Assembly: GCA_049975205.1 (NCBI GenBank)
Contig: JBNGDL010000007.1
Coordinates: 36,952-100,951, forward strand
DNA from: Anaerolineae bacterium
GTDB lineage: Bacteria; Chloroflexota; Anaerolineae; B4-G1; SLSP01
Length of the DNA: 64,000 nt
Direction of reading: 5' to 3'
Position 1 is the first letter of the stretch, and each line of letters starts with the position of its first letter. Position numbers and translations under genes: made by a program. Positions 14,687 through 35,887 of this stretch are shown piece after piece. The notes under the pieces are model-generated. The model had not been told where the DNA came from. It worked only from the letters and a program-made list of their open reading frames with translations, and did no database searches.

Positions 14687-16261
14687 TCACGGCTCGTCGC
14701 CGGTCGGCGGTGCGACGTCGAGCAGCGTCTGCTGGCCGAAGGGTGTCCCTGGCGCAACCCCGGTCACCCTGACGAGGGTCCCGATGTCGGCCCAGTTGTA
14801 GAGGGTTTCGGCGTCCCCGATGTCCAGAATGATGCAGCCGTAGGAAGCCGGATATCCCAGAACCCCCTTTGAAAGCCGGAGTCCGTAGGACGTGATTGGC
14901 AGCTCGTGGATGCCGTTGTAGAAATCCTCGCGCTCCTCGTAGAAAGCCATGAAATACGGCATATCCAGACTCCAACGCTGGGCAAAGGCCATCTCCTCCT
15001 TGAAGAGGATTTGGAACTGCCCCGCGAGCGTCGGTGTTGTAGAGATGCCGCTGGAGACTCGGAACTCATAGACTAACGTCTCCTCTTCGTAGGCCCGTAG
15101 GGTCTGGGTGGGGAGATCGATCTCGATGCGTTTTCCTCGGACCAGTGGATGTGGGAAGAGGATGTCGATTGAGGGAACCGTGATCACTTGCCCCACATCG
15201 ATGAGGCCTGGGTCGACCTCCGGGTTGACCCGCTCTAGCTGCCATTGGGAGAACCCGTGGTTGTAGGCAATATCATAGAAGGTGTCGCCTAGCTGGACAA
15301 TGTAGGTCTTGGGCGGATGGCGCACCTCAGCGTAGACGGGGTTGTTTGCATTCGATCGTATAGCATCTGCCACCCGCGCGCTCGTCGCCTCCACGTCAAG
15401 AAGGCGTTCCTCGCCGAGTTGAGGGGCGATCGTCCCGACCCAAGTACGGATGGCATTGGTATCATATCTGAGGCGGAACCCGCCCTCATCCTGCACGACG
15501 CGCAGCCACTGGGCGATCTGATCTCGCTCAGCGGTGAACTCCGCGTAGTAACCTCCTTGCTCTGGATCCCCCGTCAGGGGATCCTGGACGACGAGCGTCA
15601 GAGACTCAGACAGCCTTGCCTCGATCTGGCTCTGTGTCGGCTCTGCCGTGGCTATGGCGGGCGGCACAACATCAAGCGTCAACTCGACACGCCCGGCGCC
15701 CTCACGTAACGCGGTCAGAGTCTGAGCGGTAGCTGCCTCGACGTCCAATTCCTGACCGTCATGTGCAGGCCCACTGCGCACCTGGCCTCCCAGGATGGTG
15801 AGACTAGCATTACGAGGCGCTATCTTGACAGCCGCCGCGATTTCCTCGATGTAGGCTTGGACGCGTGCCGGATCGGCTGGTGAGATGGGTACGGTGATCG
15901 AGACCTGCGATGGTCTGAGGACGAGGATTGCTCCTAACCACCACGGTCGGTCACGACCGATCTGGTAGGCGGCGTCGACCGCTGCATCGAGGTCGTAGCT
16001 CTGACCAGCCCTGGCCCACGTCAGGTCCCATACCTCCTCGCCGGCGACGATGGTCACCGCGAGATCCTTGGGCACGGGGAGTGCGGAGGCTAGGCGCGAA
16101 CGGGCCGCTGCGACGGTTAGGTCGCCAACGTCTATGCCCTGAATTGACACACCGGGGTAGATTCGATCCCGGTAGTGCGCGCCCACCGACACAGCTGCGC
16201 CCAGAGCGCCAAGTACGGCGAGGACCAATAAGCCTGCTGCGATCCTGCGAAGGGTCTGCAC
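14687..16261 (-). CDS. L,D-transpeptidase (YkuD domain) with LysM and N-terminal PG-binding-like region, membrane anchored
   Basis: 524 aa with a GTG start. N-terminal TM (IAAGLLVLAVLGALGAAVSV). LysM (YIVQLGDTFYDIAYNHGFSQWQLERVNP). YkuD catalytic region (NGIHELP ... ASYGCIILD). Confidence 0.8.
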   Translation of the reverse strand: MQTLRRIAAGLLVLAVLGALGAAVSVGAHYRDRIYPGVSIQGIDVGDLTVAAARSRLASALPVPKDLAVTIVAGEEVWDLTWARAGQSYDLDAAVDAAYQIGRDRPWWLGAILVLRPSQVSITVPISPADPARVQAYIEEIAAAVKIAPRNASLTILGGQVRSGPAHDGQELDVEAATAQTLTALREGAGRVELTLDVVPPAIATAEPTQSQIEARLSESLTLVVQDPLTGDPEQGGYYAEFTAERDQIAQWLRVVQDEGGFRLRYDTNAIRTWVGTIAPQLGEERLLDVEATSARVADAIRSNANNPVYAEVRHPPKTYIVQLGDTFYDIAYNHGFSQWQLERVNPEVDPGLIDVGQVITVPSIDILFPHPLVRGKRIEIDLPTQTLRAYEEETLVYEFRVSSGISTTPTLAGQFQILFKEEMAFAQRWSLDMPYFMAFYEEREDFYNGIHELPITSYGLRLSKGVLGYPASYGCIILDIGDAETLYNWADIGTLVRVTGVAPGTPFGQQTLLDVAPPTGDEP

Positions 16262-18906: not shown

Positions 18907-20001
18907 CTATAGAGAGATGTCTTCCTGTGCGAGTACCTGTAGAAAAGCCCGTGCGCGCTCTGGATCCCGGAAAGTGCCCCTAGCTTGCTGGATGACAAGC
19001 ATGAACCCTTGCCCACCCAGATTCCGCACAATGGTTCTGGCCCCTTCTGGGGATACGAAGACTTGGCAGAGCTTGCCCCCGTCGCGGATGCGCTTGAGGA
19101 GGGGTAGCCATTTGTGGGGCGGCGGCTGGCCATCACCGGGGATCCATTGGATGCCCCGGAGCCGCTCGATCGAGAGGAGCAGGTCAAGGTGGGGAATCTC
19201 GCCCTTGCCGTCGAGATGGTAGAAGCCGTGGTCGAGGTACTCACAGCAAGCGACCAGGTCCGGCATCACGAAGCGTTCGAACATCGCCGGCGAGATCATA
19301 TAGGAGAAGTCGCATTGAAGCATGTAGGTCTTGCCTGGCGACCAGATCGGCGTCCAGCAAGATGTGCCGCGGCAGCGAGGCTGGATCAGGTGATGTTGCT
19401 CGTCATAGTAGCGGAGCCACAGCTCCGTGATCCGGGCAACCAGGCGGTCGACTTCGTCTGGGTGATCGATGAGGTCGAAGAGCAAACCCTCTGTTCCGCG
19501 GAAGGATGCGAGGATGTCGAGGTTGCCGCCGAGATCAGTATGGCCGACTTGGACCAGACCCTCCCACCGCTCCGCGATGGCGCGGGTCAGCGCTTGCACG
19601 CGCTGCCACCAGGTGTTGTTGGCGTCATAGTGAAAGTCGAGGGCCTCCACGGGTTGTGGCTCGGACGTGCTGAACCAGACAGTCTCGGAGGGCTCGCTCA
19701 CACTATGCACCTCAGCGCCGAGGAAGCCCGCCATGATGCCGGGGCCGAAGTTCAGCCACCACTGCGGAAATGCATCGGCGTAGTAGCGCGTCGCCGCCAG
19801 CGCCGGAGCGTGGCGGTCCACGATCTCGTCCGGCTTCATCTCTAGGGGATAGTTGCTAAGGAATTCATATTGGAGCGTAGGCGGAACCGGATCCGTTTCC
19901 GCCAGGTAGACCAGGGGTCGCTCCAGCTCCCCGGCCCACCAGGCGAGCGTGTCCCGCTCGACGCGCTCCCAATCTTCGTGCGTGAAATGTAGATCTGACA
20001 T
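18907..20001 (-). CDS. Uncharacterised protein; possibly uroporphyrinogen-decarboxylase-like (URO-D/MtaA-like) fold
   Basis: ORF extends to 20094, but the ATG at 20001 (MSDLHFTHEDW) has GAGGAG upstream, and a promoter-like TTGACA-16-TACACT lies inside the longer extension. The family call rests on weak recollection of similar proteins annotated as URO-D-like. Confidence 0.3.
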   Translation of the reverse strand: MSDLHFTHEDWERVERDTLAWWAGELERPLVYLAETDPVPPTLQYEFLSNYPLEMKPDEIVDRHAPALAATRYYADAFPQWWLNFGPGIMAGFLGAEVHSVSEPSETVWFSTSEPQPVEALDFHYDANNTWWQRVQALTRAIAERWEGLVQVGHTDLGGNLDILASFRGTEGLLFDLIDHPDEVDRLVARITELWLRYYDEQHHLIQPRCRGTSCWTPIWSPGKTYMLQCDFSYMISPAMFERFVMPDLVACCEYLDHGFYHLDGKGEIPHLDLLLSIERLRGIQWIPGDGQPPPHKWLPLLKRIRDGGKLCQVFVSPEGARTIVRNLGGQGFMLVIQQARGTFRDPERARAFLQVLAQEDISL

Positions 20002-20066
20002 ACGCTCCTCTTCCAATGTCGAGGCGCTGAACGGACCAGCGCCTCGTTCGCCGTCCACACGGCTAG

Positions 20067-20094
20067 AGTGTATGGTTAGCTGGAAAGGTGTCAA
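20067..20094 (-). promoter_or_regulatory. sigma70-type promoter for the 18907-20001 gene
   Basis: Minus strand: TTGACA (20094-20089), 16 bp, TACACT (20072-20067). About 60 nt upstream of the ATG at 20001. Confidence 0.45.
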
Positions 20095-20268: not shown

Positions 20269-21660
20269 ATGAGAGCCTACGAAGCAGACTGGGAGTCCCT
20301 TCTACGCTACACGGTCCCTGACTGGTTCAAGGATGCCAAACTCGGCATCTTCATCCACTGGGGCGTCTACGCGGTGCCAGCATACCAGAATGAGTGGTAT
20401 CCCCGCAATATGTACATCGAGAGCAGCCCCGAATACATCCACCATCGTGAAACGTGGGGCCCGCAGGACGCGTTTGGCTATAAGGACTTTATTCCGATGT
20501 TCAAGGCCGAGAGTTGGGACCCACAGGCCTGGGTGGACCTGTTTCAGGCTGCGGGTGCTAAGTATGTGGTGCCGGTGGCAGAGCACCACGACGGATTTCC
20601 GATGTATGATAGCGCCTTCACGAACTACAACGCGGCTAGGATGGGGCCCTGTCGCGATATCGTTACCGAGTTGGCGGGCGCGGTGCGTCAAGCCGGTCTG
20701 AAGTTCGGGGTCTCCTCGCATCGTGCCTTCAATGCACGCTACTACACGTTCTCCGAGGCGTTCGACACAAACAACCCCGATCATCACAAGCTCTATGGGA
20801 TTCCGCGGAAGGCCGAGGAGCCGGTGAGCTATCCGTTCATTCTGGACTGGTACGCGCGGACCCGGGAGCTGGTGGACAGGTTCTCACCGGACGTCCTTTG
20901 GTTCGACTTCGGTTGGCACCGCGATGAGTTCGAGCCATGGCGTCCGCGAGTCGTGGCCTATTACTATAACCACGCCCTCGCGCACGGATATGAGCCGGTG
21001 CTGCAGTACAAGGACAAGATACCTGCCGGTGTCGCAGTTCTGGATATCGAGCGCGGGAAGCTTGACTCAATCCGCGAGGATACCTGGCAGACCGACACCT
21101 CGGTCAGTTATAGGTCGTGGTGCTATATCAAGGAGGACGTGTTCAAGAGCGCGACCGTCGTGATCCACGACTTGGTGGACATCGTCAGCAAGAACGGCAA
21201 TCTCTTGCTCAACGTCGGTCCCAAGCCGGACGGTACGTTCCCTCAGGAGGTCGAGGATCTCCTGCAGCGTGTTGGGGCTTGGCTGAGGATCAACGGCGAG
21301 GCGATCTATGGGACCCGACCCTGGATCACATTCGGCGAAGGGCCTACCGGCGTGCCTGAGGCGTTCCGAGAAGACGACCAGGAGCCATTCTCGGCCCAAG
21401 ACGTGCGCTACACACGGAAGGGCGACATGCTCTTTGCGATCCTGATGGGCTGGCCTGGTCAGAAGATTACGCTGAAATCTCTGCAACAGGCGGACGCGTT
21501 AGGACAGCGTGGGATAGCCAAGATCACGATGCTGGGTGCCGACGGCGAGCTTCCTTGGGCCTGGGATGGGGGCGGCCTGACGGTCAAGTTGCCGGAAGTG
21601 CCGCCTTGTGAGCACGCCTACGTGCTGAAGATCGTGCCGAGACAGACGGGGGATTTATGA
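20269..21660 (+). CDS. alpha-L-fucosidase, GH29
   Basis: 463 aa. DWFKDAKLGIFIHWGVYAVPAY and YVVPVAEHHDGFPMYDS are hallmark GH29 blocks. No signal peptide. Confidence 0.85.
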   Translation: MRAYEADWESLLRYTVPDWFKDAKLGIFIHWGVYAVPAYQNEWYPRNMYIESSPEYIHHRETWGPQDAFGYKDFIPMFKAESWDPQAWVDLFQAAGAKYVVPVAEHHDGFPMYDSAFTNYNAARMGPCRDIVTELAGAVRQAGLKFGVSSHRAFNARYYTFSEAFDTNNPDHHKLYGIPRKAEEPVSYPFILDWYARTRELVDRFSPDVLWFDFGWHRDEFEPWRPRVVAYYYNHALAHGYEPVLQYKDKIPAGVAVLDIERGKLDSIREDTWQTDTSVSYRSWCYIKEDVFKSATVVIHDLVDIVSKNGNLLLNVGPKPDGTFPQEVEDLLQRVGAWLRINGEAIYGTRPWITFGEGPTGVPEAFREDDQEPFSAQDVRYTRKGDMLFAILMGWPGQKITLKSLQQADALGQRGIAKITMLGADGELPWAWDGGGLTVKLPEVPPCEHAYVLKIVPRQTGDL

Positions 21661-22491: not shown

Positions 22492-22644
22492 AGGGTACCG
22501 TCTTCCCGGAGTTCCTTCGCCCCGACGACCCGCGGCTCACGTCGGCTCCGCTGTGACACTCAGGGAGATCGGTGATCGCGTGGCCGAAACAGGGTGCTCA
22601 GAGGCACATCAAGGCACCGCAACTCGAAAGCAAGGTGCGAGATC

Positions 22645-24243
22645 GTGGCGACGGAACGACCTGCGTCTCGTCTGCATCCGCTGTCTGCCGGCACCCTCCA
22701 TGAGCATTATCAGATACTGGAGGGATGGGAGCTGGCGGAATCGGCCTACTATGATGCGGTAGACCTCATCTGCACGCAATCTGAGTGCGGAACGCGTCAT
22801 GGCTCCGTACCAGGAGATGGGCTTTGCCTTCGCTGCCGGACACCCCTTGAGACGGTGCTGATCCACGAACGGGGTCCTATTCCGGGAGATCCGCTTTCCG
22901 CTGAGAAAATCGACCTGCTGTTGCGGCTGGGACAGGCGGGCCACCCGCATGTGCTTACCCAACGTGAAATTCTCTCGTCGCCGCGAGCTACTTGGGCTGT
23001 TGGGGTGCACCCGGGTCACTGGGGTGTCCTGGTTCGCGGGCGTCGTCCCCGGAGCTCGGAGGACGCTGTGGGCATCGTGGCCCAGGTGGCTAAGGCCATG
23101 ACCTATTTGCACCAGCAAGGCCTGGCCTTGGCGGGGCCAGAGCCCTCAGATTGGGAGGCGACGGTAGAGAAGGTGATCACGCTTGGGGGCGCGGGTGCTG
23201 TGAAGCTGGCTGACCTGAGTGGATGCACCGTGCTGCGCGGGGCGTCGCGATCACAGCAGATCGCCGGTGACGTAGCTTTCCTGGGCCGCCTGTTGTTGTA
23301 CCTGACATCAGATGTGGAAGGCATACCCTCACATCCCTCGCTGGCAGCCCCTGCGCTGTGCCCCTACGTCGCGCAGGCTCTGCAGGGGGCGTATGCTACC
23401 CCAATGGCCCTTTTGAACGATCTCACCTCGACGCCGGCACCGGCTTTGACGGCGCGACCGCTGACCCCGAACCACGGTCAGGCCTCAGATCCGGGCCGGA
23501 AGCACAGCCACAACGAGGATGCTGTCGTCACCTTTACCTACAACAAGGAGCTTCAGGGGCGCTCCGTGCCCATCGGCTTCTACTTGGTGGCGGACGGCAT
23601 GGGAGGCCATGCGGCCGGCGACGTTGCGAGCCGGACGGTCAACGAGATTGTGACAGAGTGGGTCCTGAGGACGAAGGTCTTGCCAGACCTTGCGGGCAGG
23701 ACACGCCTGCTGGGCAGCGACGGTCCGGCGGAGGAGCTGCTGACACAAGCGGTCAAGGCCGCAAACGCGGCCCTGGTTCGACAGGCCAAGGCTTCAGGGA
23801 GCGATCTGGGATCGACGGTGACCGCCGCGTTGATCCTCGGCAACTGCGCTACGATCGTGAATGTGGGTGACAGCCGCACCTACCTACTGCGCGATGGGGT
23901 TCTGAAGCAGATTACCGAGGACCATTCTCTCGTTGCCAGGCTGGTCGATGCGCAGATCATAGAGCCCGATCAAGTGCGCAGCCATCCCCAGCGCAACCAG
24001 ATCTATCGAAGCCTAGGCCATCACGAGGAAGTCGCGGTTGACACCTTCGACCTTGTCCTCCGGCGCCACGATCGCCTGATTCTCTGTTCTGACGGATTGT
24101 GGGAGATGGTCCCGGACGCGCGGATTCAGCAGATCGTTGAGGAGTCCCGAAGCCCACAGCAGGCCTGCTATGCCCTCGTCGCGACAGCCAATGAGGCCGG
24201 TGGCGATGACAACATCTCGGTGGTTATTGTGGCTATGGAGTAG
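22645..24243 (+). CDS. Zinc-ribbon pseudokinase fused to PP2C-family Ser/Thr phosphatase
   Basis: ORF opens at 22594 (GTG). The GTG at 22645 has AAGGTG 7 nt upstream. The N-terminal kinase-like fold lacks a G-loop and has a CxxxC...CxxC insert (CTQSEC...CLRC). The catalytic loop is replaced by LALAGPEPSDW. The C-terminal PP2C is intact: GRKHSHNEDAVV, ADGMGGHAAGDVAS, VGDSRTYLL, CSDGLWEMV, GGDDNISVVIV. Confidence 0.75.
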   Translation: MATERPASRLHPLSAGTLHEHYQILEGWELAESAYYDAVDLICTQSECGTRHGSVPGDGLCLRCRTPLETVLIHERGPIPGDPLSAEKIDLLLRLGQAGHPHVLTQREILSSPRATWAVGVHPGHWGVLVRGRRPRSSEDAVGIVAQVAKAMTYLHQQGLALAGPEPSDWEATVEKVITLGGAGAVKLADLSGCTVLRGASRSQQIAGDVAFLGRLLLYLTSDVEGIPSHPSLAAPALCPYVAQALQGAYATPMALLNDLTSTPAPALTARPLTPNHGQASDPGRKHSHNEDAVVTFTYNKELQGRSVPIGFYLVADGMGGHAAGDVASRTVNEIVTEWVLRTKVLPDLAGRTRLLGSDGPAEELLTQAVKAANAALVRQAKASGSDLGSTVTAALILGNCATIVNVGDSRTYLLRDGVLKQITEDHSLVARLVDAQIIEPDQVRSHPQRNQIYRSLGHHEEVAVDTFDLVLRRHDRLILCSDGLWEMVPDARIQQIVEESRSPQQACYALVATANEAGGDDNISVVIVAME

Positions 24244-24330: not shown

Positions 24331-26208
24331 ATGCTGCAACCTAATACGCAACTTCAAAACCGGTATCTCATCCGCCGTCGCATTGGGGGAGGCGGGATGG
24401 GGACTGTGTACATCGCCGAAGACATGCGGCTACAGGGACGTCAGTGTGCCGTGAAGGAGATGTCACCTAGCGCCCTTGCGCCACAGGATCGAGAGTGGTC
24501 CATCGAGGCCTTCCGGCAGGAGGCTCAGATGCTCGCCCAGCTTCGCCATCCCGGCTTGACCGCCGTGACCGACTTCTTTGGGGAGGGTGGCAACTGGTAC
24601 CTCGTCATGGATTACGTCGAGGGCAAGACGCTGGCCACGAAGCTCTCGGAGGCACCAGAGGGGCGTTTCCCGGTCCAGGAGGCTCTGCGCATCGTTCGAC
24701 AGCTCTGTGACGTCCTCGAGTATCTTCACAACCAGCCATCACAGGTCATATTCCGCGATCTGAAGCCTGGGAATGTCATGGTCACCGCTGAGGGCCAGGT
24801 GAAGCTGATCGACTTCGGCATCGCGCGCTTCTTTAAGCCGGGCAAACAAGCCGACACCGCGCTACTCGGAACGCCGGGATATGCTGCGCCGGAGCAATAT
24901 GGTGGTCTGGGTCAGAGTGGGCCACAGACGGATATCTACAGCCTCGGCGTGCTCCTGTGTCACATGGTGACAGGCTTTGATCCCGTCAGTGCCATGAGTC
25001 CGTTCCCTATCCCTGACCCGACCTCGTTGATGCCGGGTATACCCCCGCGCATTGCCGCCACTATCGTTCGAGCGACCCAGTTGCGCCCGGAGCTCCGGTA
25101 TCGTAGTATCGCCGAGATGCGCGACGACCTCTTCCCACCCTCGTTCGTTCCCTATAAACCGCCTACGGAACGCCAGAGGACGCAGGTCATGCAGCCTTCC
25201 GCGCCGAGTGAGGCCGGTTCTGATCGGAAGCGGTTGCGGATGGCGCTGCTAGCGGGAGGGGCAGGTATCGCGTTGCTCGGCATCTGTGTTGGCCTTGGGG
25301 TGTTCGTCGTCTGGCCTTATCTCAGGCCCGACGCGACGGTCACGCCGACCGTGACGCCGACCCAAGCCGCTGCCACAGCCACATTCGAGGCCACGGCCAC
25401 GGTGGGTGCCACCGCCTCAGAGGAGTCGGTAACGCCAACAGAAACGCCGGCTGAGGTCGACACGGATACACCGCCGCCTCCCGTGGTAAAGGTTGATCAG
25501 GATAGCCTTGGGCTCTCGGTTCAGGGGAGGGCGCTGGCCGTCACCACGATCGGCTACGAGGACGGCGCCGACATTGTCGTGGTCGGGAGCATTCAGGGGG
25601 ATCAAGCTGGCACGCGAGACTTGGTCCAGGCACTGATCGACCACTACCGCTCGAATGAGGGCGACATACCGATGGGTGTAATGTACCACTTCGTGCCTTC
25701 CATCAACCCTGATGGCCTTACCTTGAACTCCCGCTACAACGCGCGCGACGTAGACCTCAACCGCAATTGGGGCTCTAGTGATTGGCTGCGCGACGCCGCC
25801 GTGCCGGGATACCCTGAGGGGAAGCCCGACGCGGGAGGCGCGGCACCCTTCTCGGAGCCCGAGACCCAGGCGCTGAGGGACTATCTGCTCTCTCTAAGGT
25901 CGTCTTCCGATAGGCTGCGCGTGATGATCCTACACTCCTCAGTGCGTCGTGACAAAGGTGAGGTCTATCCGGGCGGAGCCACGGCGCTGGACGCAGCACA
26001 GTCCTACGCCAACGTGACCGGCTATGACGTCGAGTATGCCTGGGCGGAGTATGTGACCTCCGGCGAGGCTGTGACCTGGTGTGAGGAGCAGTCTATCGTG
26101 TCCATTGATGTCGTCATTCCCGGATCGCAGACGCCGAGCACGAAGGTCATTGGAGATCGGACGCTGCTGCAGATCACGCTTGATGCCGTCAGGACCCTCG
26201 GTCAGTAA
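24331..26208 (+). CDS. Ser/Thr protein kinase - TM - extracellular M14 carboxypeptidase-like domain (zinc ligands substituted)
   Basis: 625 aa. Kinase motifs GGGGMGTVYIAED, CAVKEM, FRDLKPGNVMV, IDFGIARFF, GTPGYAAPEQ. One TM (LLAGGAGIALLGICVGLGVFVVW), then a T/P-rich linker. M14 blocks are VVVGSIQGDQAGT (in place of HxxE), SINPDGL, DVDLNRNWG and FSEPETQAL. Confidence 0.8.
   Translation: MLQPNTQLQNRYLIRRRIGGGGMGTVYIAEDMRLQGRQCAVKEMSPSALAPQDREWSIEAFRQEAQMLAQLRHPGLTAVTDFFGEGGNWYLVMDYVEGKTLATKLSEAPEGRFPVQEALRIVRQLCDVLEYLHNQPSQVIFRDLKPGNVMVTAEGQVKLIDFGIARFFKPGKQADTALLGTPGYAAPEQYGGLGQSGPQTDIYSLGVLLCHMVTGFDPVSAMSPFPIPDPTSLMPGIPPRIAATIVRATQLRPELRYRSIAEMRDDLFPPSFVPYKPPTERQRTQVMQPSAPSEAGSDRKRLRMALLAGGAGIALLGICVGLGVFVVWPYLRPDATVTPTVTPTQAAATATFEATATVGATASEESVTPTETPAEVDTDTPPPPVVKVDQDSLGLSVQGRALAVTTIGYEDGADIVVVGSIQGDQAGTRDLVQALIDHYRSNEGDIPMGVMYHFVPSINPDGLTLNSRYNARDVDLNRNWGSSDWLRDAAVPGYPEGKPDAGGAAPFSEPETQALRDYLLSLRSSSDRLRVMILHSSVRRDKGEVYPGGATALDAAQSYANVTGYDVEYAWAEYVTSGEAVTWCEEQSIVSIDVVIPGSQTPSTKVIGDRTLLQITLDAVRTLGQ
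25330..25482 (+). repeat. Low-complexity Thr/Pro/Ala-rich extracellular linker-coding tract (kinase)
   Basis: Encodes DATVTPTVTPTQAAATATFEATATVGATASEESVTPTETPAEVDTDTPPPP, between the TM helix and the M14-like domain. Confidence 0.6.
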
Positions 26209-26219
26209 GGAGCGAGTCT

Positions 26220-27092
26220 ATGCGATGCCCTAACTGCGGCCAAGAGAACCGCGTGGGAGCGAGGTTCTGCGGGCGGTGCGGTCAGCCCCTATCGACTAAG
26301 CCGCCTCTGGAACTCACGGAGGCTGCTTCTCGTTGCCCAGTCTGCAACAGCATCCTCAAACCGGATGCGCGCTTCTGCCCGCAGTGCGGCACCGCTATCT
26401 CCGCTCCTCGAGATGGGGTTCCAGCGCCGACGCCGCCGGCCCACACCGTGAGGGCCGGTGAGAGAGCTCTGCCGACGGTCACGCCCGCACCAGCGATCGT
26501 GAGCCCTCAAGCTGCGCCCGAGGCCAGTCGGGTGGAGGAACAGTCACGAGCTCGCGTGCGGCGCCGCCCTGCCTGGCTCGTCGGGGTCGTGATGGCGCTG
26601 CTCTCAGGGGCTGTGTTTTTCTGCCTCGTGATGGGGCTCGCTCTTCTGCCAGCCTTTGGGAGGTCGGTGCCGCCGTCGCCGGAGGTCGATCCCTCGCAAG
26701 CCGATTTGACGATCCTGGTGAGGGAGGCGTACATCAGCGATATGCTCGCCCAGGCGCTGCCGGAGGGGGTACAGGGGGATGCTGTTGTGGATGTGCAGCC
26801 CGGAAACAAGCTCGTCACGACGATCGGCTTCGATCTCCTGTTCATCGACCTTGAGGTGATTGTCCACGCCGGGATCGGGGTTGAGGGTGGTGAGATCCAG
26901 GTCTGGGTGGACCGCGTGGAGACCGGCGGACACGACATCCTTGAACTGCTCAACGTTAATCAGGTCGATCTCGGGCAGAACATCACAGGCGCGATCCAAC
27001 AGGGACTCGAAGATGAACTGGGCCCAGGTTCGCGGTTGCTGACGATTGTCACAGACGACACCAACGTGATCCTGACGGCGCGATGGGAGTAG
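26220..27092 (+). CDS. Double zinc-ribbon - TM - extracytoplasmic domain protein
   Basis: 290 aa, AAGGAG RBS. MRCPNCGQENRVGARFCGRCG and CPVCNSILKPDARFCPQCG. Pro-rich linker, TM (WLVGVVMALLSGAVFFCLVMGLALL) and an ecto-domain of about 150 aa, possibly DUF2993/LmeA-like (weak). Confidence 0.6.
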   Translation: MRCPNCGQENRVGARFCGRCGQPLSTKPPLELTEAASRCPVCNSILKPDARFCPQCGTAISAPRDGVPAPTPPAHTVRAGERALPTVTPAPAIVSPQAAPEASRVEEQSRARVRRRPAWLVGVVMALLSGAVFFCLVMGLALLPAFGRSVPPSPEVDPSQADLTILVREAYISDMLAQALPEGVQGDAVVDVQPGNKLVTTIGFDLLFIDLEVIVHAGIGVEGGEIQVWVDRVETGGHDILELLNVNQVDLGQNITGAIQQGLEDELGPGSRLLTIVTDDTNVILTARWE

Positions 27093-27098
27093 ACGGCG

Positions 27099-27680
27099 AT
27101 GACGCAGATTAGGGGTGGAGGACTGCTTCGGAATCGGTGGTTTGTGGCGTTGGTTGGGGCGGTCCTGGGGTTCTTCGTCGGCGTCGCCCTGGCGGCTGGT
27201 GTTCTGCTGCTGCTGCATGGCGACCCAGAGTCCTTACCAGGCACGTCGCCCGCAGCGGTCTACGATATTCAGGCCGTGGTTGAGGAGCGCTATATCAACC
27301 GCATCATGGTTCAGAGCGCCAACGAGATGGCGGGCCCAGTTTCCCTCTCGGCGGGCAAGATGGACATTCGACCGGGCGGGGTAGCTGACTTCGTCGTGCG
27401 CATTGATGTTGGTCCGCTTCAGCCAGTCTTCGAGGGTAGGGTAGGGTTTAGGGCCACGGAAGACGGTAGCAGCATCGAGGTAGTGCTGCTGGATGCCCGA
27501 TTCGGGAGGCTGCAGCTGAACCGGCTCGTGCCCGATGGCGTGTTGGACGACATCAACGCAGACATCAAGCGGCTCTTGGTCGACAAGATTGGGTCGCAGG
27601 GTCTCTACGTCCTGGACGTGCAGAGTGATGAGACAACGCTCATTCTCCATCTGGGCAGGGAGCCACAGGCTATCCCTTGA
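27099..27680 (+). CDS. Single-pass membrane protein, ecto-domain distantly paralogous to that of the preceding gene
   Basis: 193 aa. N-terminal TM (WFVALVGAVLGFFVGVALAAGVLLLL). The following domain repeats the pattern of the upstream ecto-domain (EERYINRIM... vs REAYISDML...; C-terminal ...TTLILHLG vs ...TNVILTARW). Confidence 0.5.
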   Translation: MTQIRGGGLLRNRWFVALVGAVLGFFVGVALAAGVLLLLHGDPESLPGTSPAAVYDIQAVVEERYINRIMVQSANEMAGPVSLSAGKMDIRPGGVADFVVRIDVGPLQPVFEGRVGFRATEDGSSIEVVLLDARFGRLQLNRLVPDGVLDDINADIKRLLVDKIGSQGLYVLDVQSDETTLILHLGREPQAIP

Positions 27681-27717: not shown

Positions 27718-30528
27718 ATGATTCGCTGTGAGCAGTGCGGCGCACTGAATCGCTCCGAGGCGCATTACTGCACGAAGTGCGGATCAGCGCTGGGGGCTGT
27801 GGCACCGGCTGATCCGCCCTCACTGTGTCCTCACTGCGGGGTCCCGCTGCGCCCAGAATCGCGTTTCTGCCCTGCCTGCGGTCGAACCGTCGCAGGCGTG
27901 ACGGTGGCCCAGGATGGGAGTATCCACGAGCAGAAGATCGTTGTTCGTTGGCCTGGCGGCGAGTCCGAGGAGCACGCTCTCGACAAGTCGGTGGTACACA
28001 TCGGGCGGGCACCGGACAACGACATCGTCCTCAACTTCCCCACGGTCTCGGGACACCATCTCGCACTTGACGTCACGCCAAGTGACGTGAGGGTCACGGA
28101 CCTCAACAGCACGAACGGGACGATGCTGAAAGGACGCTTGATCACACCCCGTTCTCCGCATCCTTGGAGAGAGGGCGAGACCCTGCGTGTGGGCGATGTC
28201 TGGGGTAACTCCATCAGCATTGTGCTGAAGGGCGCGGCGGCCCCGGCTCTCCATACCTATCCGCTGGGTATGCACCGCCTCGCGCAGCACGCCCGCATCC
28301 TGATTGGGCGCGATCCGGCGAGCCAGATCACGCTTGATCATCCCACGGTCTCGCGCCGCCACGCCGAGATCGTGCGACAGGAGGGCGGGCACGCCATCCG
28401 CGATCTGGGCAGCGTCAATGGCACCTTTGTGAACGGGCAGCGGGTCCTAGATGTCGTCCGGCTGCAGGAGGGCGACGTCATCCAGTTGGGACCGTACAAG
28501 ATGGTCTACGACGGGGACGCTGACCGGCTCTCGACCTCGGTGAGCCAGGGCCACCGATTGGATGCGATCGGGCTCGGCGTAGAGGTCGGTGGTGGTCGCA
28601 TGATCCTGCAGGACGTCTCGCTCTCCGTACAGGGAGGCGAGTTCGCGGCGCTGGTCGGCGGCAGCGGTGCGGGCAAGAGCACGCTCCTCAAGGCGATGAA
28701 CGGCTTCCGACCCGCGACCCACGGTCGGATGCTGATCGATGGGGAGCTGCTTTATCCAAATCTGGCGGCCTATCGGACCTTGATGGGCTATGTGCCACAG
28801 GATGACATCATCCACAAGACGCTGCCGGTGCGGAGCGCGCTGTGGTACTCGGCGCGGCTACGTCTGCCTGATGCGACGTCGGCCGAGATCGAGGAGCGGA
28901 TCGACCGTGTCCTCGAGTTGGTGGAGCTGACAGCGCACCAGCACAAGCCGGTTCGGGTGCTGAGCGGCGGGCAACGCAAGCGCGTCAGCATCGCGGTGGA
29001 GCTCCTGGCAGATCCCGATCTCCTCTTCCTGGACGAGCCGACCTCCGGATTGGATCCCGGGCTCGAGAAGAAGATGATGTACGATCTCAACCGGCTGGCC
29101 GATCAAGGACGGACGGTGGTGCTGGTCACGCACGCCACCGCGAACATCGAGCAATGCGATCACGTCGGCTTCTTGGAGCGAGGGAACCTCGCCTACTACG
29201 GCCCTCCCAATGAGGCTATCGCCTTCTTCAAGGCAAGAGACTTTGCTGATATCTACCTGAAGCTGTCAGAACCGGTCGACGGTTTCAGAGGAGCTCTTCC
29301 CTCGGAACTGAGGCCCTATTGGGACGCGATTCAGGCGCGACTACCCGAGGAGGCAAGAGGTCAATCGCCTGGGGTCTGTACTGCAGGGCTTCTCTGGGCG
29401 CAACACTACCGCGCAAGCGACCTTCACCAACGTTACGTCGTGAACAGGCAGGCGCGCTTGGACGCAGCTCGGCCTGGGATGGAAGCGGCGCCTGCGCGCC
29501 GCAAGCGGACTCGAGACTCGGTTCTGCGTCAGCTTGTTGTGCTTGTCCGGCGCCAGTTCGATCTGATCCGTCACGACCTGCGCACGCTGTTCATCCTGCT
29601 TTTGATGATGCCGCTCATTGCCGTTTTGTTTATGCTGGTAAGTGACAAGACGGCGTTCGTCGGGGGCGCGGCGACGGAGGCAAGTCTCAAACAGGAGCTT
29701 CTGCAGGCCCTCAATGTGACTCGGGAGGATGATCTGTCCTCCGTGGTGCTCGACGGGGAGGATCTGGAGCGATCTGCCGACTACATGCCCTACGCCGATG
29801 CGAAGACGCTGGTCACCATGCTCGGGCTTGCCTTGACGCAGGCGGGCACCTTCGGGGCCGCCTATGAGATAGTAAAAGAACGCCCGATCTTCCGTCGCGA
29901 ACGGTCCGTCAACCTCCGGGTGGGGGCGTACGTATTGTCCAAGGCTTTGGTGCTCGGCGTCTTTGCGGTCATCCAGGTAGCCAGCGTGCTCGGTGTGCTG
30001 GCGCTGAAGCTGGATCTGGGCATCGATCCTATTCTGGATATCTTTGCCTTCGGCGCCGCGGAGCTCTTCGTGACACTGCTTATCGCGGTTGTCGCCAGCA
30101 TTATGTTCGGCTTGTTCATCTCGGCCGTTGTGCCTAGCCAGGACGTGGTGCTCTACATCATCCTGATCCAGCTCTTTACCCAGATTATCCTCTCGGGCAC
30201 ACTCTTCCCACTGGGGGACAATCCGGCGTCCAAGCTCGTGCCGTCTTACTGGACGATGGATGCGATGGGTGCTACCGTGGACCTGCGGAAGTTGAACGAC
30301 GAGGGCCGGGTCTGCAAGATATGGGAACAGAAGGATGTTCCCACGGCGGAGGGCACGCGGATGACGCAACGGGGGATCGTGTGCGAGACGGCGGCGATCA
30401 AGAACCTAGACCTGCCCTGGAAGCACGACGCGGAGCATCTCTTGACAGCGTGGGGCGCCCTCGGTGCACAGGCCCTGGTTTGGATGGCTGCTACCATGGT
30501 GGTGCAATCGAGAGTCAAAGGCGACTAG
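27718..30528 (+). CDS. ZnR-ZnR-FHA-FHA-ABC ATPase-ABC2 permease fusion (Rv1747-like FHA-regulated ABC exporter)
   Basis: 936 aa. Zn ribbons CEQCGALNRSEAHYCTKCG and CPHCGVPLRPESRFCPACG. FHA1 is VVHIGRAPDNDIVLNFPTVSGHHLAL...NSTNGT. FHA2 is ILIGRDPASQITLDHPTVSRRHAEI...GSVNGT. Walker A GGSGAGKST, signature LSGGQRKR, Walker B LLFLDEPTSGLD. Multi-TM ABC-2-type C-terminal half. Confidence 0.85.
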   Translation: MIRCEQCGALNRSEAHYCTKCGSALGAVAPADPPSLCPHCGVPLRPESRFCPACGRTVAGVTVAQDGSIHEQKIVVRWPGGESEEHALDKSVVHIGRAPDNDIVLNFPTVSGHHLALDVTPSDVRVTDLNSTNGTMLKGRLITPRSPHPWREGETLRVGDVWGNSISIVLKGAAAPALHTYPLGMHRLAQHARILIGRDPASQITLDHPTVSRRHAEIVRQEGGHAIRDLGSVNGTFVNGQRVLDVVRLQEGDVIQLGPYKMVYDGDADRLSTSVSQGHRLDAIGLGVEVGGGRMILQDVSLSVQGGEFAALVGGSGAGKSTLLKAMNGFRPATHGRMLIDGELLYPNLAAYRTLMGYVPQDDIIHKTLPVRSALWYSARLRLPDATSAEIEERIDRVLELVELTAHQHKPVRVLSGGQRKRVSIAVELLADPDLLFLDEPTSGLDPGLEKKMMYDLNRLADQGRTVVLVTHATANIEQCDHVGFLERGNLAYYGPPNEAIAFFKARDFADIYLKLSEPVDGFRGALPSELRPYWDAIQARLPEEARGQSPGVCTAGLLWAQHYRASDLHQRYVVNRQARLDAARPGMEAAPARRKRTRDSVLRQLVVLVRRQFDLIRHDLRTLFILLLMMPLIAVLFMLVSDKTAFVGGAATEASLKQELLQALNVTREDDLSSVVLDGEDLERSADYMPYADAKTLVTMLGLALTQAGTFGAAYEIVKERPIFRRERSVNLRVGAYVLSKALVLGVFAVIQVASVLGVLALKLDLGIDPILDIFAFGAAELFVTLLIAVVASIMFGLFISAVVPSQDVVLYIILIQLFTQIILSGTLFPLGDNPASKLVPSYWTMDAMGATVDLRKLNDEGRVCKIWEQKDVPTAEGTRMTQRGIVCETAAIKNLDLPWKHDAEHLLTAWGALGAQALVWMAATMVVQSRVKGD

Positions 30529-31614: not shown

Positions 31615-33969
31615 ATGCGTGGACAACGACGACGGCTGATTAGGACATTGTTGGTCAGTGGCGGGATTCTATTGGTTCTTGGCATCCTTGTAGGGGTCGC
31701 GCTGCTCACGAATGCGTTTTCGTGGTCTTCCGAGCGGACGCGCCGGGAGCTTCTGGCCGATGGCCCTGGAATCGAGCTGACACCGCCGATAGCGATCGAC
31801 GACCTCGCGGAGGCTTATCCTCAACTGGCTTCCGTGCTGAGTGACCCGGAACTGGCGACGGTGTACAAGGAGTTCGTGGTGGCGTATCAGGAGGGCGGGG
31901 TCGAGGCTGCTTCCGAGCTGGCGAAGAGCCGGGGCTTACTCACCCCCGATGGGCAGCATCTGCGCGTGACGCTTGTCCTCGACACTGACGCGCCACAGCC
32001 GCTCGTTGATCAGTTGGAAGGTGTTGGTGTGGAGGTGGTCAGTGCATTTCGTGATCGTGTCAATATCGCCGTGCCGGTCGCCCTGATCGAGCAGGCGATG
32101 CAATCGGAGGATGTCGATAGCGTCTTCCAGCAACTCACCGAGCTTCAGCACGTGATCGCAGTGCGTTTGCCAGGTCAACGGCAGTCCGACCAGCAGACGG
32201 AGCAGGGCGAGGGGGTCCGCGCGGTTGGCGCGGAAGTTTGGCACCAGGCAGGTTTCACCGGTGCTGGGCTGCGGGTCGGCATACTCGATTTGGGTTTTGC
32301 AGGGTACCGACGCCTCCTGGGGCGTGAGCTTCCTGACAATGTCGAGGTGGAGACTTTCGGATGGATTGACGACAAGGAGGTCCACGGGACTGCCTGTGCC
32401 GAGATTGTGCACGAGCTCGCGCCCGATGCGACCCTATATCTCGCCTGGTATGATGGCAGTGATGCCGCAATGGGGGAGGCTGTCGCATGGCTGCGAGGTC
32501 ATGAAGTCGACATCATCAGCCATTCAGCCGGGAGCGTGCTCAGCCCGCGAGATGGCACGGGTTGGGACGCAGAGTTGGTTGATGAAACTGCCGCGACGGG
32601 TGTGCTTTGGGTAAACTCTGCGGGCAATGAAGCAGATGTCCATCACCGGGCGACCTTCATCGATCAGGACGGTGATGGCTATCATGATTTTGAACTCGAC
32701 ACGTCGCTCCTTCCAATCTACAACGAGGGGGATCTGCGCGTCTTTCTTGTCTGGCACGAAGATTGGGAACGGCCCACCGAGGATCTTGAGCTGTTTGTTT
32801 TCGATGCCGACGGCAACGTGCTGGCCTCCTCTGAAGATCTGCAGGATGGGGGCTTGGGACAGCAACCCGCCGAATGGGTGGTTATGCAGTCCTCGGCGTC
32901 GGTGGTCTATGCTGCCGTCTACGCCTATGATGTCGATCGCGCGATGGGCTTTGATCTTTTTGCGATCGGTCCCGGGGTCGAGATCAAGGACCCGGTCCCG
33001 GCCTATAGCGTAAACTCCCCTGGTGACGCCGTTGGGGCTTTGACCGTCGGGGCAGTGGACTGGGAGGATGACCGCCTCGCCCGCTACAGCTCTCAGGGGC
33101 CGACTACTGACGAGCGCCTGAAGCCCGAGATCTCGGGTCCGACGAGGATTTCGGGCATTACCTATGGGGCCCACGGCTTTGATGGAACGTCGGCGTCGGC
33201 GCCGCACGTGGCCGGTGTGGCTGCACTGGTGTGGCAAGCTTACCCGAGCTACACGCGACAGGAGCTGACCGATCTGCTTCTGACGTCGGCCAAGGATCTG
33301 GGACCGGCCGGGCCTGACACCGGTTACGGGTTTGGACGCCTGCAGCTGCCCCCGCCGCCCAATGCTGCGGCGGTCATCGCCAGCCCCGAAGCGCCCGCCG
33401 ACGAAGCCACTGAGACGCCGACCACAGACGTCACGCCAACGCCGGTCGCCTTTGCATTACCTGCTCCTGAGAATGACACGGATGACCGGCGGCAGAGGCC
33501 TCTCGTCTTAGTGGGGCTTCTCGTGGGAGGCCTGAGCATTGGGGGCACGGGGCTCCTTGCCATCGGCGGCTACCTTCTTCTGAGCGAACTAAGGACCCGG
33601 TCGACGCCATCATCAGAGCCGCCGAGGCCTGCTCCGCCTTTGGCAGTGGCGCCGGCGCGGCCGATGCGGCCTTCAGAGAGGCCCGCCGAGGGGCCCTCGC
33701 TGCCATCCACAGAGCGATGGGAGACAGACCAGGGCGACTTGAGGACGCCGGATGCTCATTCTGCCAAGCGGCCGACATCCAAGTCAGAATCTGAGACACA
33801 CTGTCCTTCCTGCGGGGCTCCGTTGCGATCGGGGGCTCGGTTCTGCCCCGGGTGTGGCACGCGTCTGGCGATCGCTTCGAATCCGGCTTTCTGCCGTCAC
33901 TGTGGTGCCGCGTTGCGAGAGGACAGCCGGTTCTGCCCGAAGTGCGGCCTGCCGGTCGATCGGCGCTGA
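31615..33969 (+). CDS. Membrane-anchored subtilisin-like (S8) serine protease with N-terminal pro-like domain, second TM and cytoplasmic double zinc-ribbon tail
   Basis: 784 aa. N-terminal TM (LLVSGGILLVLGILVGVALL). Catalytic triad contexts VGILDLGF (Asp), HGTACAEIV (His), GTSASAPHVAG (Ser), with oxyanion NSAGNE. TM2 is LVLVGLLVGGLSIGGTGLLAIGGYLLL. Tail motifs CPSCGAPLRSGARFCPGCG and CRHCGAALREDSRFCPKCG. Confidence 0.85.
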   Translation: MRGQRRRLIRTLLVSGGILLVLGILVGVALLTNAFSWSSERTRRELLADGPGIELTPPIAIDDLAEAYPQLASVLSDPELATVYKEFVVAYQEGGVEAASELAKSRGLLTPDGQHLRVTLVLDTDAPQPLVDQLEGVGVEVVSAFRDRVNIAVPVALIEQAMQSEDVDSVFQQLTELQHVIAVRLPGQRQSDQQTEQGEGVRAVGAEVWHQAGFTGAGLRVGILDLGFAGYRRLLGRELPDNVEVETFGWIDDKEVHGTACAEIVHELAPDATLYLAWYDGSDAAMGEAVAWLRGHEVDIISHSAGSVLSPRDGTGWDAELVDETAATGVLWVNSAGNEADVHHRATFIDQDGDGYHDFELDTSLLPIYNEGDLRVFLVWHEDWERPTEDLELFVFDADGNVLASSEDLQDGGLGQQPAEWVVMQSSASVVYAAVYAYDVDRAMGFDLFAIGPGVEIKDPVPAYSVNSPGDAVGALTVGAVDWEDDRLARYSSQGPTTDERLKPEISGPTRISGITYGAHGFDGTSASAPHVAGVAALVWQAYPSYTRQELTDLLLTSAKDLGPAGPDTGYGFGRLQLPPPPNAAAVIASPEAPADEATETPTTDVTPTPVAFALPAPENDTDDRRQRPLVLVGLLVGGLSIGGTGLLAIGGYLLLSELRTRSTPSSEPPRPAPPLAVAPARPMRPSERPAEGPSLPSTERWETDQGDLRTPDAHSAKRPTSKSESETHCPSCGAPLRSGARFCPGCGTRLAIASNPAFCRHCGAALREDSRFCPKCGLPVDRR

Positions 33970-34138: not shown

Positions 34139-35887
34139 TTGGTGCTCTTGGGGCTCTTGTTTGTCTTGACCACCGTCGTCTTGGCAAGGCGACTTCGCAG
34201 ACGACGTGTCTCTTCGAAGACGACGCCGGAGGCAACCTCTGCAGCCGCGACACGCCAGGGTGGGGGGACCAAGCAGCTAGCGGGGACGCCTGAAGCGTCG
34301 CATCCCGATCTAAGCGGCGGCTTTTCAGCACTGGCTGAAGGTACTGTGCTTAACAACCGCTACGTGATACGTGAGGTCCGTGGATCAAGCGGCAGCCACG
34401 CGGTCTACCTGGCTGAGGATCTCTACCCGGTCAAGATGTGTCCGGCATGCCGTGGCGTGGCATCAGACGCGGATGAGATTCGGTGCACATATTGTGGGGC
34501 CGATCTGTCCGAGATCTCCCCAGCTCAGCTCAGGTATCTCGTGCAGGAGCGGGACGATCCTGCGGCGTTCAGCTCTGAAGGCCAGTTACTCCAGCTTGAC
34601 CTGAGGCATCCGGGCCTGTTGCTGCCGGTTGCGGTCTTCGTGGAAGCTCCTCACGGTCCCAAGCGGGCTTATCGTGTTATGCCCGAGTTCTCCCCGCCGC
34701 TTGTGAAGACCGTGCCCGGTCCACGTGACTTGGCCCAGACGCTCTCGTGGGGTGTCTCGTTGGCGAAGGCTCTCGCTTATCTGCATCAGCACGATGTTGC
34801 CCTTGGTTCTGTGGATATCGACCACGTCTCGGTTGATGGCGACAGAGCATGGTGGTCGGGGCTGACCCGCGTCACGATCTTGTCCGCTGAGGAGCGTGCC
34901 TCTATCCGTGAGGCGCACGCCGTCGATGTGCAGAAGCTGGCGACCTTGTTGGTACAGCTGGGGACAGGAAGGGCTAACGCGGCTCTGCCCGAGAGCTGGC
35001 CTGATGCTCTGAACCAGTTGATCACCAAGGCACACCGTGAGCCTGCGAAGGTGAGCGCTGCGGAGTTTGCTGTTATGCTGGAGCACCTGTTGGAACAAGT
35101 GCGGGAGCCTAAGCGCGTGACGCTGGTGGTCGGGCAGTGCACGGATGTGGGTTCCATTCGCTCTGTCAATGAGGATACTCTTCTCTCGGTCGACCTCGGG
35201 GCGATCCATCGCCTGCGAGATCAGGCGGCGGGGCTTTTTCTCGTCGCCGATGGTATGGGTGGGCACGACGCAGGGGATGTGGCCAGCCAGTTGACGGCTC
35301 GGACAATTGGGGAGCTGACAACAGAGGAAGGGACCCGCCCCATTTCCTCCCGTCAGCTGTTCTCCGACCCGGCAGGGTGGCTGTTGACTGCGGTCCGGCA
35401 GGCCAACCAGGCGGTATATGAGGAGCGGATGGCTGCGAAATCTGACATGGGCACGACGCTCGTCGCGGCGCTCGTGATGGGTGCGCGGGCGACAATTGCT
35501 AACGTGGGAGACAGCCGCTGTTATCTGCTCAGCAACCGTGGCATCACCCAGGTCACGGTGGACCACTCGCTGGTGGAGCGGCTGGTGGCGACTGGTCAGA
35601 TCACGCGTGAGGAGGCGGCTGTGCATCCTCAGCGTCACGTCATCTACCGCGTGATCGGCGATAGGCCGGAGGTGGAGATCGATCTCTTCGAGCAACCGAT
35701 GCAGGTCGACGAAGCGTTGTTGCTCTGCTCCGACGGGTTGAGCGGCATGGTGTCTGACGAGACGATCTGGCGGATCTGGATGGCTGCAGCCTCTCCCCAA
35801 GATGCTTGCATCCGCTTGGTCGCGGCTGCGAATAGGGCCGGCGGCGAGGATAACATCACCGCCGTGATCGTTCAAGTGCGGACCTGA
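34139..35887 (+). CDS. Zinc-ribbon pseudokinase fused to PP2C phosphatase (paralog of 22645-24243), possible N-terminal membrane anchor
   Basis: 582 aa from a TTG at 34139; alternative starts are GTG 34142 and GTG 34346. Kinase-like LNNRYVIREV..AVYLAED, insert MCPACRG...RCTYCG, alphaC-like EGQLLQLDLRHPGL. The catalytic loop is replaced by ALGSVDIDHV and there is no DFG. The PP2C is intact: SIRSVNEDTLL, ADGMGGHDAGDVAS, VGDSRCYLL, CSDGLSGMV, GGEDNITAVIV. Confidence 0.75.
   Translation: MVLLGLLFVLTTVVLARRLRRRRVSSKTTPEATSAAATRQGGGTKQLAGTPEASHPDLSGGFSALAEGTVLNNRYVIREVRGSSGSHAVYLAEDLYPVKMCPACRGVASDADEIRCTYCGADLSEISPAQLRYLVQERDDPAAFSSEGQLLQLDLRHPGLLLPVAVFVEAPHGPKRAYRVMPEFSPPLVKTVPGPRDLAQTLSWGVSLAKALAYLHQHDVALGSVDIDHVSVDGDRAWWSGLTRVTILSAEERASIREAHAVDVQKLATLLVQLGTGRANAALPESWPDALNQLITKAHREPAKVSAAEFAVMLEHLLEQVREPKRVTLVVGQCTDVGSIRSVNEDTLLSVDLGAIHRLRDQAAGLFLVADGMGGHDAGDVASQLTARTIGELTTEEGTRPISSRQLFSDPAGWLLTAVRQANQAVYEERMAAKSDMGTTLVAALVMGARATIANVGDSRCYLLSNRGITQVTVDHSLVERLVATGQITREEAAVHPQRHVIYRVIGDRPEVEIDLFEQPMQVDEALLLCSDGLSGMVSDETIWRIWMAAASPQDACIRLVAAANRAGGEDNITAVIVQVRT

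Follow-up and report, generated by a model that had tools for sequence, protein, structure and literature searches.

We describe a gene at positions 24331..26208 (+ strand) of a 64,000-nucleotide stretch of DNA from an Anaerolineae bacterium (the window, hereafter), which encodes a receptor-type Hanks Ser/Thr kinase with an M14 carboxypeptidase fold as its ectodomain. Judged by alignment, this ectodomain is without three of the four catalytic residues of M14 enzymes and retains the set that holds the substrate. We lean, if only slightly, towards its being a pseudo-carboxypeptidase sensor that would read peptidoglycan stem peptides. A sequence-only reading of the same DNA had proposed a dead peptidase repurposed as a sensor; the residue pattern and the predicted fold argue for that proposal, and the finding goes beyond it in four respects: a third catalytic residue is lost, the family is large and conserved, the neighbouring gene for an active paralogue is conserved too, and an evolutionary path can plausibly be drawn.

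Architecture and active site of the kinase–M14 protein

The open reading frame is real, as seen from the open reading frame list and its translation, and encodes 625 amino acids; an exact-match look-up of the protein returned no match. Matches to Pfam Pkinase and Peptidase_M14, together with 78 full-length homologue clusters, divide the protein into a Hanks Ser/Thr kinase, a transmembrane helix, a stalk rich in threonine, proline and alanine, and an M14 pseudo-carboxypeptidase ectodomain. The cytoplasmic kinase domain (amino acids 7–293; 24349..25209, +) matched the NCBIfam PknB-type model with an E-value of 1.5e-66, and Pfam Pkinase over amino acids 14–220 (E 7e-44). Its signatures are all present, with the G-loop as GGGGMG, the lysine in CAVK, then FRDLKPGN, DFG and APE; the profile match combined with the G-loop, VAxK lysine, xRD loop, DFG and APE elements identifies a Hanks-type Ser/Thr kinase. 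The claim that the kinase has every catalytic motif thus stands for the window protein, and it extends to the homologues, in which [F/H]RDLKPxN, DFG and [A/S]PE were intact in 78/78.

The single transmembrane helix lies at about amino acids 306–331 (25246..25323, +), where the Kyte-Doolittle profile reaches a maximum of 2.3 in 19-residue windows starting at amino acids 306–313, and is preceded on the cytoplasmic side by a basic RKRLR stretch. It leads into an extracytoplasmic stalk (amino acids 332–384; 25324..25482, +) whose composition is 15 threonines, 10 alanines and 9 prolines in 54 residues, and then into the M14-fold ectodomain (amino acids 385–625, 241 residues; 25483..26205, +), which is predicted to be catalytically dead. 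As the kinase is cytoplasmic and followed by one transmembrane helix, the M14-like domain is placed outside the membrane.

Both fold and sequence assign the ectodomain to the family PF00246. Pfam Peptidase_M14 matched amino acids 391–528 with an E-value of 1.4e-15 and 58.1 bits against a cutoff of 21.6, and an AlphaFold2 model of amino acids 385–625, built with a 77-sequence alignment, had a mean pLDDT (predicted local distance difference test) of 97.5 and a pTM (predicted template modelling score) of 0.94. The top Foldseek matches among solved structures were all M14 carboxypeptidases, carboxypeptidases A and B (CPA and CPB) included; carboxypeptidase T (CPT) was matched at an E-value of about 1e-14 with a template modelling (TM) score of 0.75, and MpaA (5hxd) at 5e-14 with TM scores of 0.70/0.71. 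The M14 blocks picked out in the sequence-only reading (SINPDGL, DVDLNRNWG, FSEPETQAL and a late LHS, here read as ILHSS) were all found in this domain.

M14 enzymes are defined by H69, E72 and H196, which bind the metal, by R127 and R145, which bind the substrate, and by E270, which acts in catalysis; H69, E72 and E270 are tabulated as essential for M14 catalysis (PMC11266112). Positions 69, 72, 127, 144, 145, 196, 248 and 270 are given throughout in CPA numbering. Where the I-H-x-x-E zinc motif is expected, the ectodomain reads I-Q-G-D-Q (amino acids 421–425; 25591..25605, +), exactly as had been claimed, and three independent alignments agree that Gln422 and Gln425 occupy the zinc-ligand positions His69 and Glu72. 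In a phmmer alignment with CPB (7eqx), I-Q-G-D-Q sits under I-H-A-R-E; when MAFFT is used to align the family jointly with some 80 canonical relatives, the two glutamines fall where 'G-G-I-H-G-(G)-x-E-x-N-T' has its H and its E; and a profile made only from proteins with this pair of glutamines (Q..Q proteins) aligns its 'vGsiqGdQsnT' to 'VANMHGDETVG' of carboxypeptidase M (CPM) and 'VGNMHGNEALG' of carboxypeptidase N (CPN).

The general base is lost as well. MpaA '…TWC…ITVELP' aligns without a gap to '…TWC…SIDVVIP' of the ectodomain, which puts Val595, in the segment D593-V594-V595 (26107..26115, +), at the position of Glu270; in this column canonical relatives read V-E-L and the Q..Q clade D-V-V. 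Asp593, two residues earlier, was considered as the Glu270 equivalent and ruled out, since MpaA aligns without gaps and canonical relatives have the E of V-E-L at the place of Val595. The earlier reading had been right about both zinc ligands and had not flagged this third loss. The remaining zinc ligand is kept as His535 (25933..25935, +), which aligns with the histidine of 'FHE' in MpaA and 'FHT' in CPT. Kept too is the anchor for the substrate's C-terminal carboxylate, made up of R468, the R127 equivalent, and N477-R478-N479-W480, which includes N144 and R145 (25732..25770, +; aligned with 'R.N...DLNRNF' of CPM and CPN), and of Tyr574 (26050..26052, +), the Tyr248 equivalent in a Y-x-x-S-G…W motif, aligned with 'nYitdG' of CPT and 'dYetpG' of MpaA. 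Compared with an active M14 metallocarboxypeptidase, the ectodomain is therefore deficient in zinc ligands, two of three being replaced, and in its general base, and equipped as such an enzyme is for holding the substrate carboxylate. We infer from these residues that it would be incapable of catalysis and may be free of metal.

Conservation and descent of the family

A full-length search returned 78 further clusters at 90% identity with the same kinase–transmembrane helix–M14 architecture, giving a family of at least 79 clusters with the window protein. The homologues are 496–733 amino acids long and 38–63% identical to the window protein, mostly over near-full length; all come from metagenome-assembled genomes of Anaerolineae/Chloroflexota, and their existing annotation is only 'protein kinase' or 'DUF2817 domain-containing protein'. 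The notion that the fusion is rare, which came from an ectodomain-only word-index search that gave short or non-kinase proteins, was overturned by these 78 fusion clusters.

The substitutions noted in the window copy recur throughout the family. Position 72 is Gln in 79/79 clusters and position 69 is Gln in 68 and Glu in the other 11, with Asp at position 69 in several 50% representatives; position 270 is Val or Ile in 77/77. The retained residues are as constant, with His at position 196 in 79/79, N144 and R145 in 79/79 (NRNW in 79/79), R468 in 78/79 and Y574 in 77/77, so that the substrate-binding residues, which had been said to be retained, are 97–100% conserved. In total, 37 positions are at least 95% identical and nearly all of these lie within the classical M14 active-site segments; the window copy agrees with the family consensus at 49/50 highly conserved positions. 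Because Gln at position 72 is invariant and position 69 is confined to Gln or Glu across the 79 clusters, the zinc-ligand substitutions are, on these alignments, a family trait and not chance decay.

This conservation could also be that of an enzyme whose site has been remodelled around Gln/Glu422, Gln425, His535 and Asp593 and which uses another metal or another chemistry. The strict invariance of Q425, H535 and D593 would fit such a site, as would the Glu or Asp found at position 69 in some members, both of which can bind metal; since His196 and Asp593 are strictly kept and position 69 can be acidic, a residual or altered metal site is conceivable, which counts against our reading of the ectodomain as a metal-free sensor. 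However, H69, E72 and E270 are all replaced, position 270 is hydrophobic in 77/77, Asp593 is not specific to the clade in that canonical relatives often have Asp there too, and glutamine is a poor zinc ligand. Continued enzymatic activity, hydrolytic or of the transfer kind, is, for us, very improbable.

How a sensor of this kind could have arisen is suggested by its relatives. HMMER, run exhaustively over 1.84 billion representatives, found 2,767 relatives with E ≤ 1e-3, among them 56 with E ≤ 1e-30, and a neighbour-joining tree of M14 domains was made from the top 150 representatives. In this tree, which carries no bootstrap values and is to that extent a weak point of our interpretation, the 34 leaves of the Q..Q clade form a monophyletic group, and most members of its sister clade are M14 domains that are fused to kinases and have an intact H-E-H-E set ('G-x-H-G-[DN]-E … D-V-E-L'). 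Because the sister clade is kinase-fused and intact, fusion to the kinase probably preceded the loss of catalysis. The sister clade also holds R-x-x-[T/N/Q]…E forms, which may be intermediates toward the Q..Q state, and the steps from an M14 domain still active on its kinase, via R-x-x-Q intermediates, to the Q-x-x-Q form that has Val270 would then record an enzyme becoming a sensor. Four sister-clade proteins (P0271, P0279, P0286 and P0304) are kinase-fused, with Arg at position 69, Thr, Asn or Gln at position 72, and Glu270 kept.

Sister kinases whose catalytic domains are 55–68% identical bear other ectodomains in the same position, all of them recognised as binding modules (CBM9, PD40 propeller or FGE-sulfatase), and the ectodomain slot therefore appears to be a swappable sensor position; the Q..Q ectodomain, for its part, is also found behind cytoplasmic heads other than a kinase, namely double zinc ribbons and short 'DEYGxI' repeats. 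Non-kinase Q..Q members (P0002–P0005, P0010 and P0012; e.g. positions 6001–7164 of locus L169) have short heads with repeated 'DEYG[EQD]I', and these repeats might be docking motifs. At one locus (L044, 6001–6462; P0034) the Q..Q M14 gene matches only residues 93–241 of the query, and the start of its product is unrelated; a frameshift or a 5' truncation may have made it a pseudogene.

Pattern-based scans of genomes and metagenomes gave, among the matches listed, mostly distant relatives, with other degenerate M14 clades among them. A second, independent degenerate clade ('GGLHAGFAP … VFWEA … VLL') keeps His69 and has Glu72 replaced by Ala, His196 by Glu and Glu270 by Leu (members in L006, L012, L013/L095, L086, L099, L101 and L103; P0118 and P0360). 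It is fused to Hanks kinases in seven fetched loci and to zinc ribbons too, and its pattern is akin to that of the inactive carboxypeptidase D (CPD) domain III (H69, A72, D196, Y270; PMC11266112). A third (P0092, P0094 and P0109) keeps His69 and has Ser at position 72, Phe or Tyr at position 196 and Leu at position 270. The L099 and L103 kinases have Asp-rich 'DSDGDGLxDGDE' repeats between the transmembrane helix and the degenerate M14 domain, which resemble thrombospondin type 3 calcium-binding repeats.

Gene neighbourhood, candidate ligand and proposed signalling output

Gene context points to the cell wall. We examined 13 related loci, 12 with a Q..Q-type gene (L161, L163–L170, L044, L081 and L082) and one with a sister-clade kinase (L171). 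Immediately downstream of the Q..Q-type gene is a membrane-anchored M14 gene in 12/12, at a gap of 4–129 bp in the nine loci with called genes; in L044, L081 and L082 this partner was detected by tblastn. H/E/H/E is complete in each of ten partners checked; the nine of L161 and L163–L170 have the full canonical set (IHGGYE … NRN … YHS … E-[IV]-E-[LF]), and most M14 partners carry LysM at the C-terminus. Further downstream come genes for a YkuD L,D-transpeptidase (in L163, L167 and L169) and for a LysM-M23 peptidase (in L167), and a PG_binding_4-LysM-YkuD gene lies upstream in L165 (2265–3872). One orthologue (P0152) has a LysM domain of its own, between the transmembrane helix and the Q..Q M14 domain. 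The partner enzymes (L161–L170; L081, L082, L166) show H-x-x-x-E spacing (IHGGYE), not the classical HxxE, and a Gln at the would-be Tyr248 position, and some consist of two tandem M14 domains plus LysM. In L169 (101–4238) the trio of Q..Q M14, M14-LysM and YkuD genes adjoins the BREX defence genes PglZ and BrxL, probably by coincidence.

Since an active M14-LysM enzyme and L,D-transpeptidases so constantly accompany the family, a peptidoglycan stem peptide appears the most likely ligand; the earlier guess at peptidoglycan is thus backed by the M14(-LysM) gene of the 12 loci, the frequent YkuD gene and the LysM domain on the P0152 ectodomain. The window is the sole exception among the 13 Q..Q-type loci. 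No M14-LysM partner was found in its 64 kb, tblastn recovering only the kinase's own M14 domain, and with 12 bp between the kinase stop and the following zinc-ribbon gene (26208–26220) the arrangement suggests that the partner was cleanly lost or relocated. The window does hold a PG_binding_4-LysM-YkuD L,D-transpeptidase gene 8 kb upstream of the kinase (14687..16261, −; Pfam), which is syntenic with that of L165.

The same pairing would fit a dead ectodomain that bound no free ligand and instead docked onto the co-encoded active M14-LysM enzyme, regulating it allosterically or reporting its engagement to the kinase. The canonical M14(-LysM) gene comes directly after the Q..Q-type gene at a spacing that suggests a shared operon, whatever the cytoplasmic head (kinase, zinc ribbon or DEYGxI peptide), and the sister-clade kinase of L171, with an intact M14 domain, likewise has another M14 gene beside it, which is canonical and shares 4 bp with the kinase gene. 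Degenerate LytM factors that regulate amidases provide an analogy, and pseudopeptidase homologues often regulate their active relatives (PMC11266112). Yet the window protein, with no partner gene in the 64 kb, matches the consensus at all but one of the 50 highly conserved positions, the strongest conservation maps to the substrate-carboxylate pocket and not to an obvious surface patch, and the partner, at no more than about 30% identity, is not the closest paralogue. We consider docking in place of ligand binding rather unlikely. A related idea, which we raise tentatively and with less confidence than doubt, is that the Q..Q ectodomain and the active M14-LysM enzyme join outside the membrane in a pseudoenzyme–enzyme complex, in which the trimming of stem peptides, and so the supply to YkuD, would be coupled to Ser/Thr phosphorylation inside the cell. 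Were this true, it would be a previously unknown circuit of cell-wall homeostasis that could replace PASTA kinases in Chloroflexota, and the two other kinase-fused degenerate M14 clades would have arrived at this solution independently.

Candidates for the output of the kinase are encoded next to it. A PP2C Ser/Thr phosphatase gene lies upstream (22594..24243, +) and has a counterpart at this position in L161 and others a short distance away in L163 and L166; the product is a clear Pfam PP2C match and scored 225.4 bits against the NCBIfam Stp1/IreP model NF033484, for which the cutoff is 230. Its N-terminal extension of 290 amino acids (22594–23470) matches no family and includes a Cys-rich stretch that resembles a zinc ribbon, and orthologous PP2C proteins are similarly long (582–660 amino acids). 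Downstream of the kinase are genes for a double-zinc-ribbon single-pass membrane protein of 290 amino acids (26220..27092, +; Pfam DZR/Zn_Ribbon), at the orthologous position in L161 and L165, and for a small membrane protein of 193 amino acids (27099..27680, +), a conserved operon member, with genes for products of 184–186 amino acids at the same position in L161 and L165. The latter had no family above cutoff (best Pfam E-value 0.064; none in NCBIfam), and paralogy between the two products was not detectable (E 0.26). Next comes a 936-amino-acid protein (27718..30528, +) with a zinc ribbon, two FHA domains, ABC_tran and ABC2_membrane (Pfam), conserved in L161 and L165, whose FHA region matches the Rv1747 FHA structures 6cah and 6ccd, among others; by these matches it is likely to be a phospho-threonine-regulated exporter of Rv1747-like architecture. 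The operon of PP2C, kinase, two small membrane proteins and FHA-FHA-ABC protein is shared with L161 and L165.

No second Hanks kinase is encoded in the window, which also holds several FHA proteins and two PP2C genes. The signalling island continues beyond the operon with an S8 subtilase bearing a C-terminal double zinc ribbon (31615–33969), the second PP2C (34139–35887), which is 47% identical to the first, a VWA-FHA protein (35916–37913) and a further FHA-like match (~38760–38915).

In the sensor mechanism that we favour, the former active site would be a non-hydrolysing pocket gripping a free peptide C-terminus, and the ligand would be a stem peptide that is a substrate or product of the co-encoded M14-LysM carboxypeptidase. 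Occupancy of the pocket would alter kinase activity across the single transmembrane helix, probably via dimerisation as in other bacterial receptor kinases; FHA domains, chiefly the pair on the FHA-FHA-ABC exporter of the same operon, would read the resulting phospho-threonines, and the PP2C encoded next to the kinase would undo the signal. In this scheme we infer what the ligand is, that a signal crosses the membrane and that the FHA-ABC protein is the output. A loose parallel is found in E. faecium, where Stk/StpA phosphorylation and a D,D-carboxypeptidase control the L,D-transpeptidation pathway (PMC4161250). The pairing with active M14-LysM, often with YkuD, makes this a testable model for the sensing of 3-3 cross-linking substrates.

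The pocket might alternatively receive environmental peptides, amino acids or carboxylates, with the kinase coupling nutrients to export or uptake. The CBM9, PD40 and FGE-sulfatase ectodomains of the sister kinases suggest the sampling of diverse external cues, and the window, from which the partner enzyme is absent, has a glycoside-hydrolase cluster upstream of the kinase, with arabinofuranosidase (12948–14504), GH2 (16555–18885) and alpha-L-fucosidase (20269–21660) genes. These hydrolase genes are, however, not conserved neighbours across L161–L170, and against such a ligand stands the family-wide association with LysM, YkuD and M23 cell-wall genes, including the member with LysM fused to its ectodomain; a nutrient ligand is in our view improbable. 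A 395-amino-acid open reading frame in the same region (18907–20094, −) had no Pfam match.

Several further points weigh against stem-peptide sensing. The whole case is drawn from sequence, predicted structure and gene context; as the window is without the M14-LysM partner, its peptidoglycan link consists of the orthologues and of the YkuD gene at a distance of 8 kb; a protein–protein role would account just as well for the strict pairing with an active paralogue; similarity to MpaA, the sole peptidoglycan-specific M14 enzyme with solved structures that was found, is no better than similarity to CPT; and the upstream glycoside hydrolases could point to nutrient sensing.

Comparison with known systems

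A kinase with an M14 pseudopeptidase ectodomain is described neither in the 2024 pseudopeptidase review (PMC11266112), nor in a preprint atlas of bacterial Ser/Thr kinases, nor in the results of full-text searches, in agreement with the earlier statement that no such sensor had been characterised. The 'Peptidase_M14' of the kinase atlas was rejected as a precedent, being the non-catalytic C-terminal transthyretin-like M14NE-CP-C domain.

On the output side, the nearest likeness is to PknF-Rv1747 of Mycobacterium tuberculosis, in which phosphorylation by PknF positively regulates the Rv1747 transporter (PMC3138270). As there, the genes for a Hanks kinase and for an ABC exporter bearing two N-terminal FHA domains share an operon, an arrangement conserved in L161 and L165. 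The window exporter adds an N-terminal double zinc ribbon, two genes for small membrane proteins lie between it and the kinase, and a PP2C gene belongs to the operon; PknF, moreover, has no comparable ectodomain.

The ectodomain itself resembles MpaA and Pgp1/Csd4 in its compact bacterial M14 fold and its NPDG, DLNRN, SEPET and 'Y.t.G..tWC' motifs, and M14 enzymes that act on stem peptides are established (PMC3310789). MpaA, unlike the window ectodomain with its two missing zinc ligands and missing general base, is a soluble active zinc enzyme. The score against NCBIfam MpaA (NF007897) was 39.4 bits, where the cutoff is 157, so the ectodomain is no MpaA equivalog; because this similarity is weak, the label 'MpaA-like' would be only a lead.

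Pseudopeptidases with an M14 fold, replaced catalytic residues and a presumed binding or scaffolding role are found in eukaryotes (CPXM1, CPXM2, AEBP1/ACLP, CPD domain III and the fungal Ecm14), all of which keep His69 and most of which lose R145 and/or E270; no bacterial or peptidoglycan-linked M14 pseudopeptidase is mentioned in the same review (PMC11266112). The Q..Q family is their inverse, with H69, E72 and E270 lost and the R127 equivalent, N144, R145 and Y248 kept, and it is bacterial, membrane-anchored and kinase-fused. This opposite pattern is what a natural 'substrate trap' would look like, and as far as the literature shows the family would be the first bacterial M14 pseudopeptidase.

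Zinc-hydrolase folds stripped of their metal ligands serve elsewhere as regulators or receptor domains, as in the degenerate LytM (dLytM) factors EnvC and NlpD and the carbonic-anhydrase-like ectodomain of RPTP gamma/zeta. These have other folds and other partners, and none is known to be fused to a Ser/Thr kinase.

Bacterial receptor Ser/Thr kinases monitor the wall mainly via PASTA domains, and what is known of the inputs of such kinases comes largely from Firmicutes and Actinobacteria. In common with the PASTA kinases (PknB/PrkC/Stk1), the window protein has a Hanks kinase, a single transmembrane helix, a module from a cell-wall enzyme family, an adjacent PP2C and peptidoglycan fragments as its presumed input. 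Unlike them it has no PASTA match, its sensor being an M14 metallopeptidase fold, and, though it would function in a similar way, it is not a member of the Stk1/PknB family NF033483, to which only amino acids 7–293 match (225.6 bits against a cutoff of 450). The Q..Q family may thus represent a second, independently evolved solution to wall sensing, in which a carboxypeptidase has been deprived of catalysis, left with its recognition and wired to a kinase.

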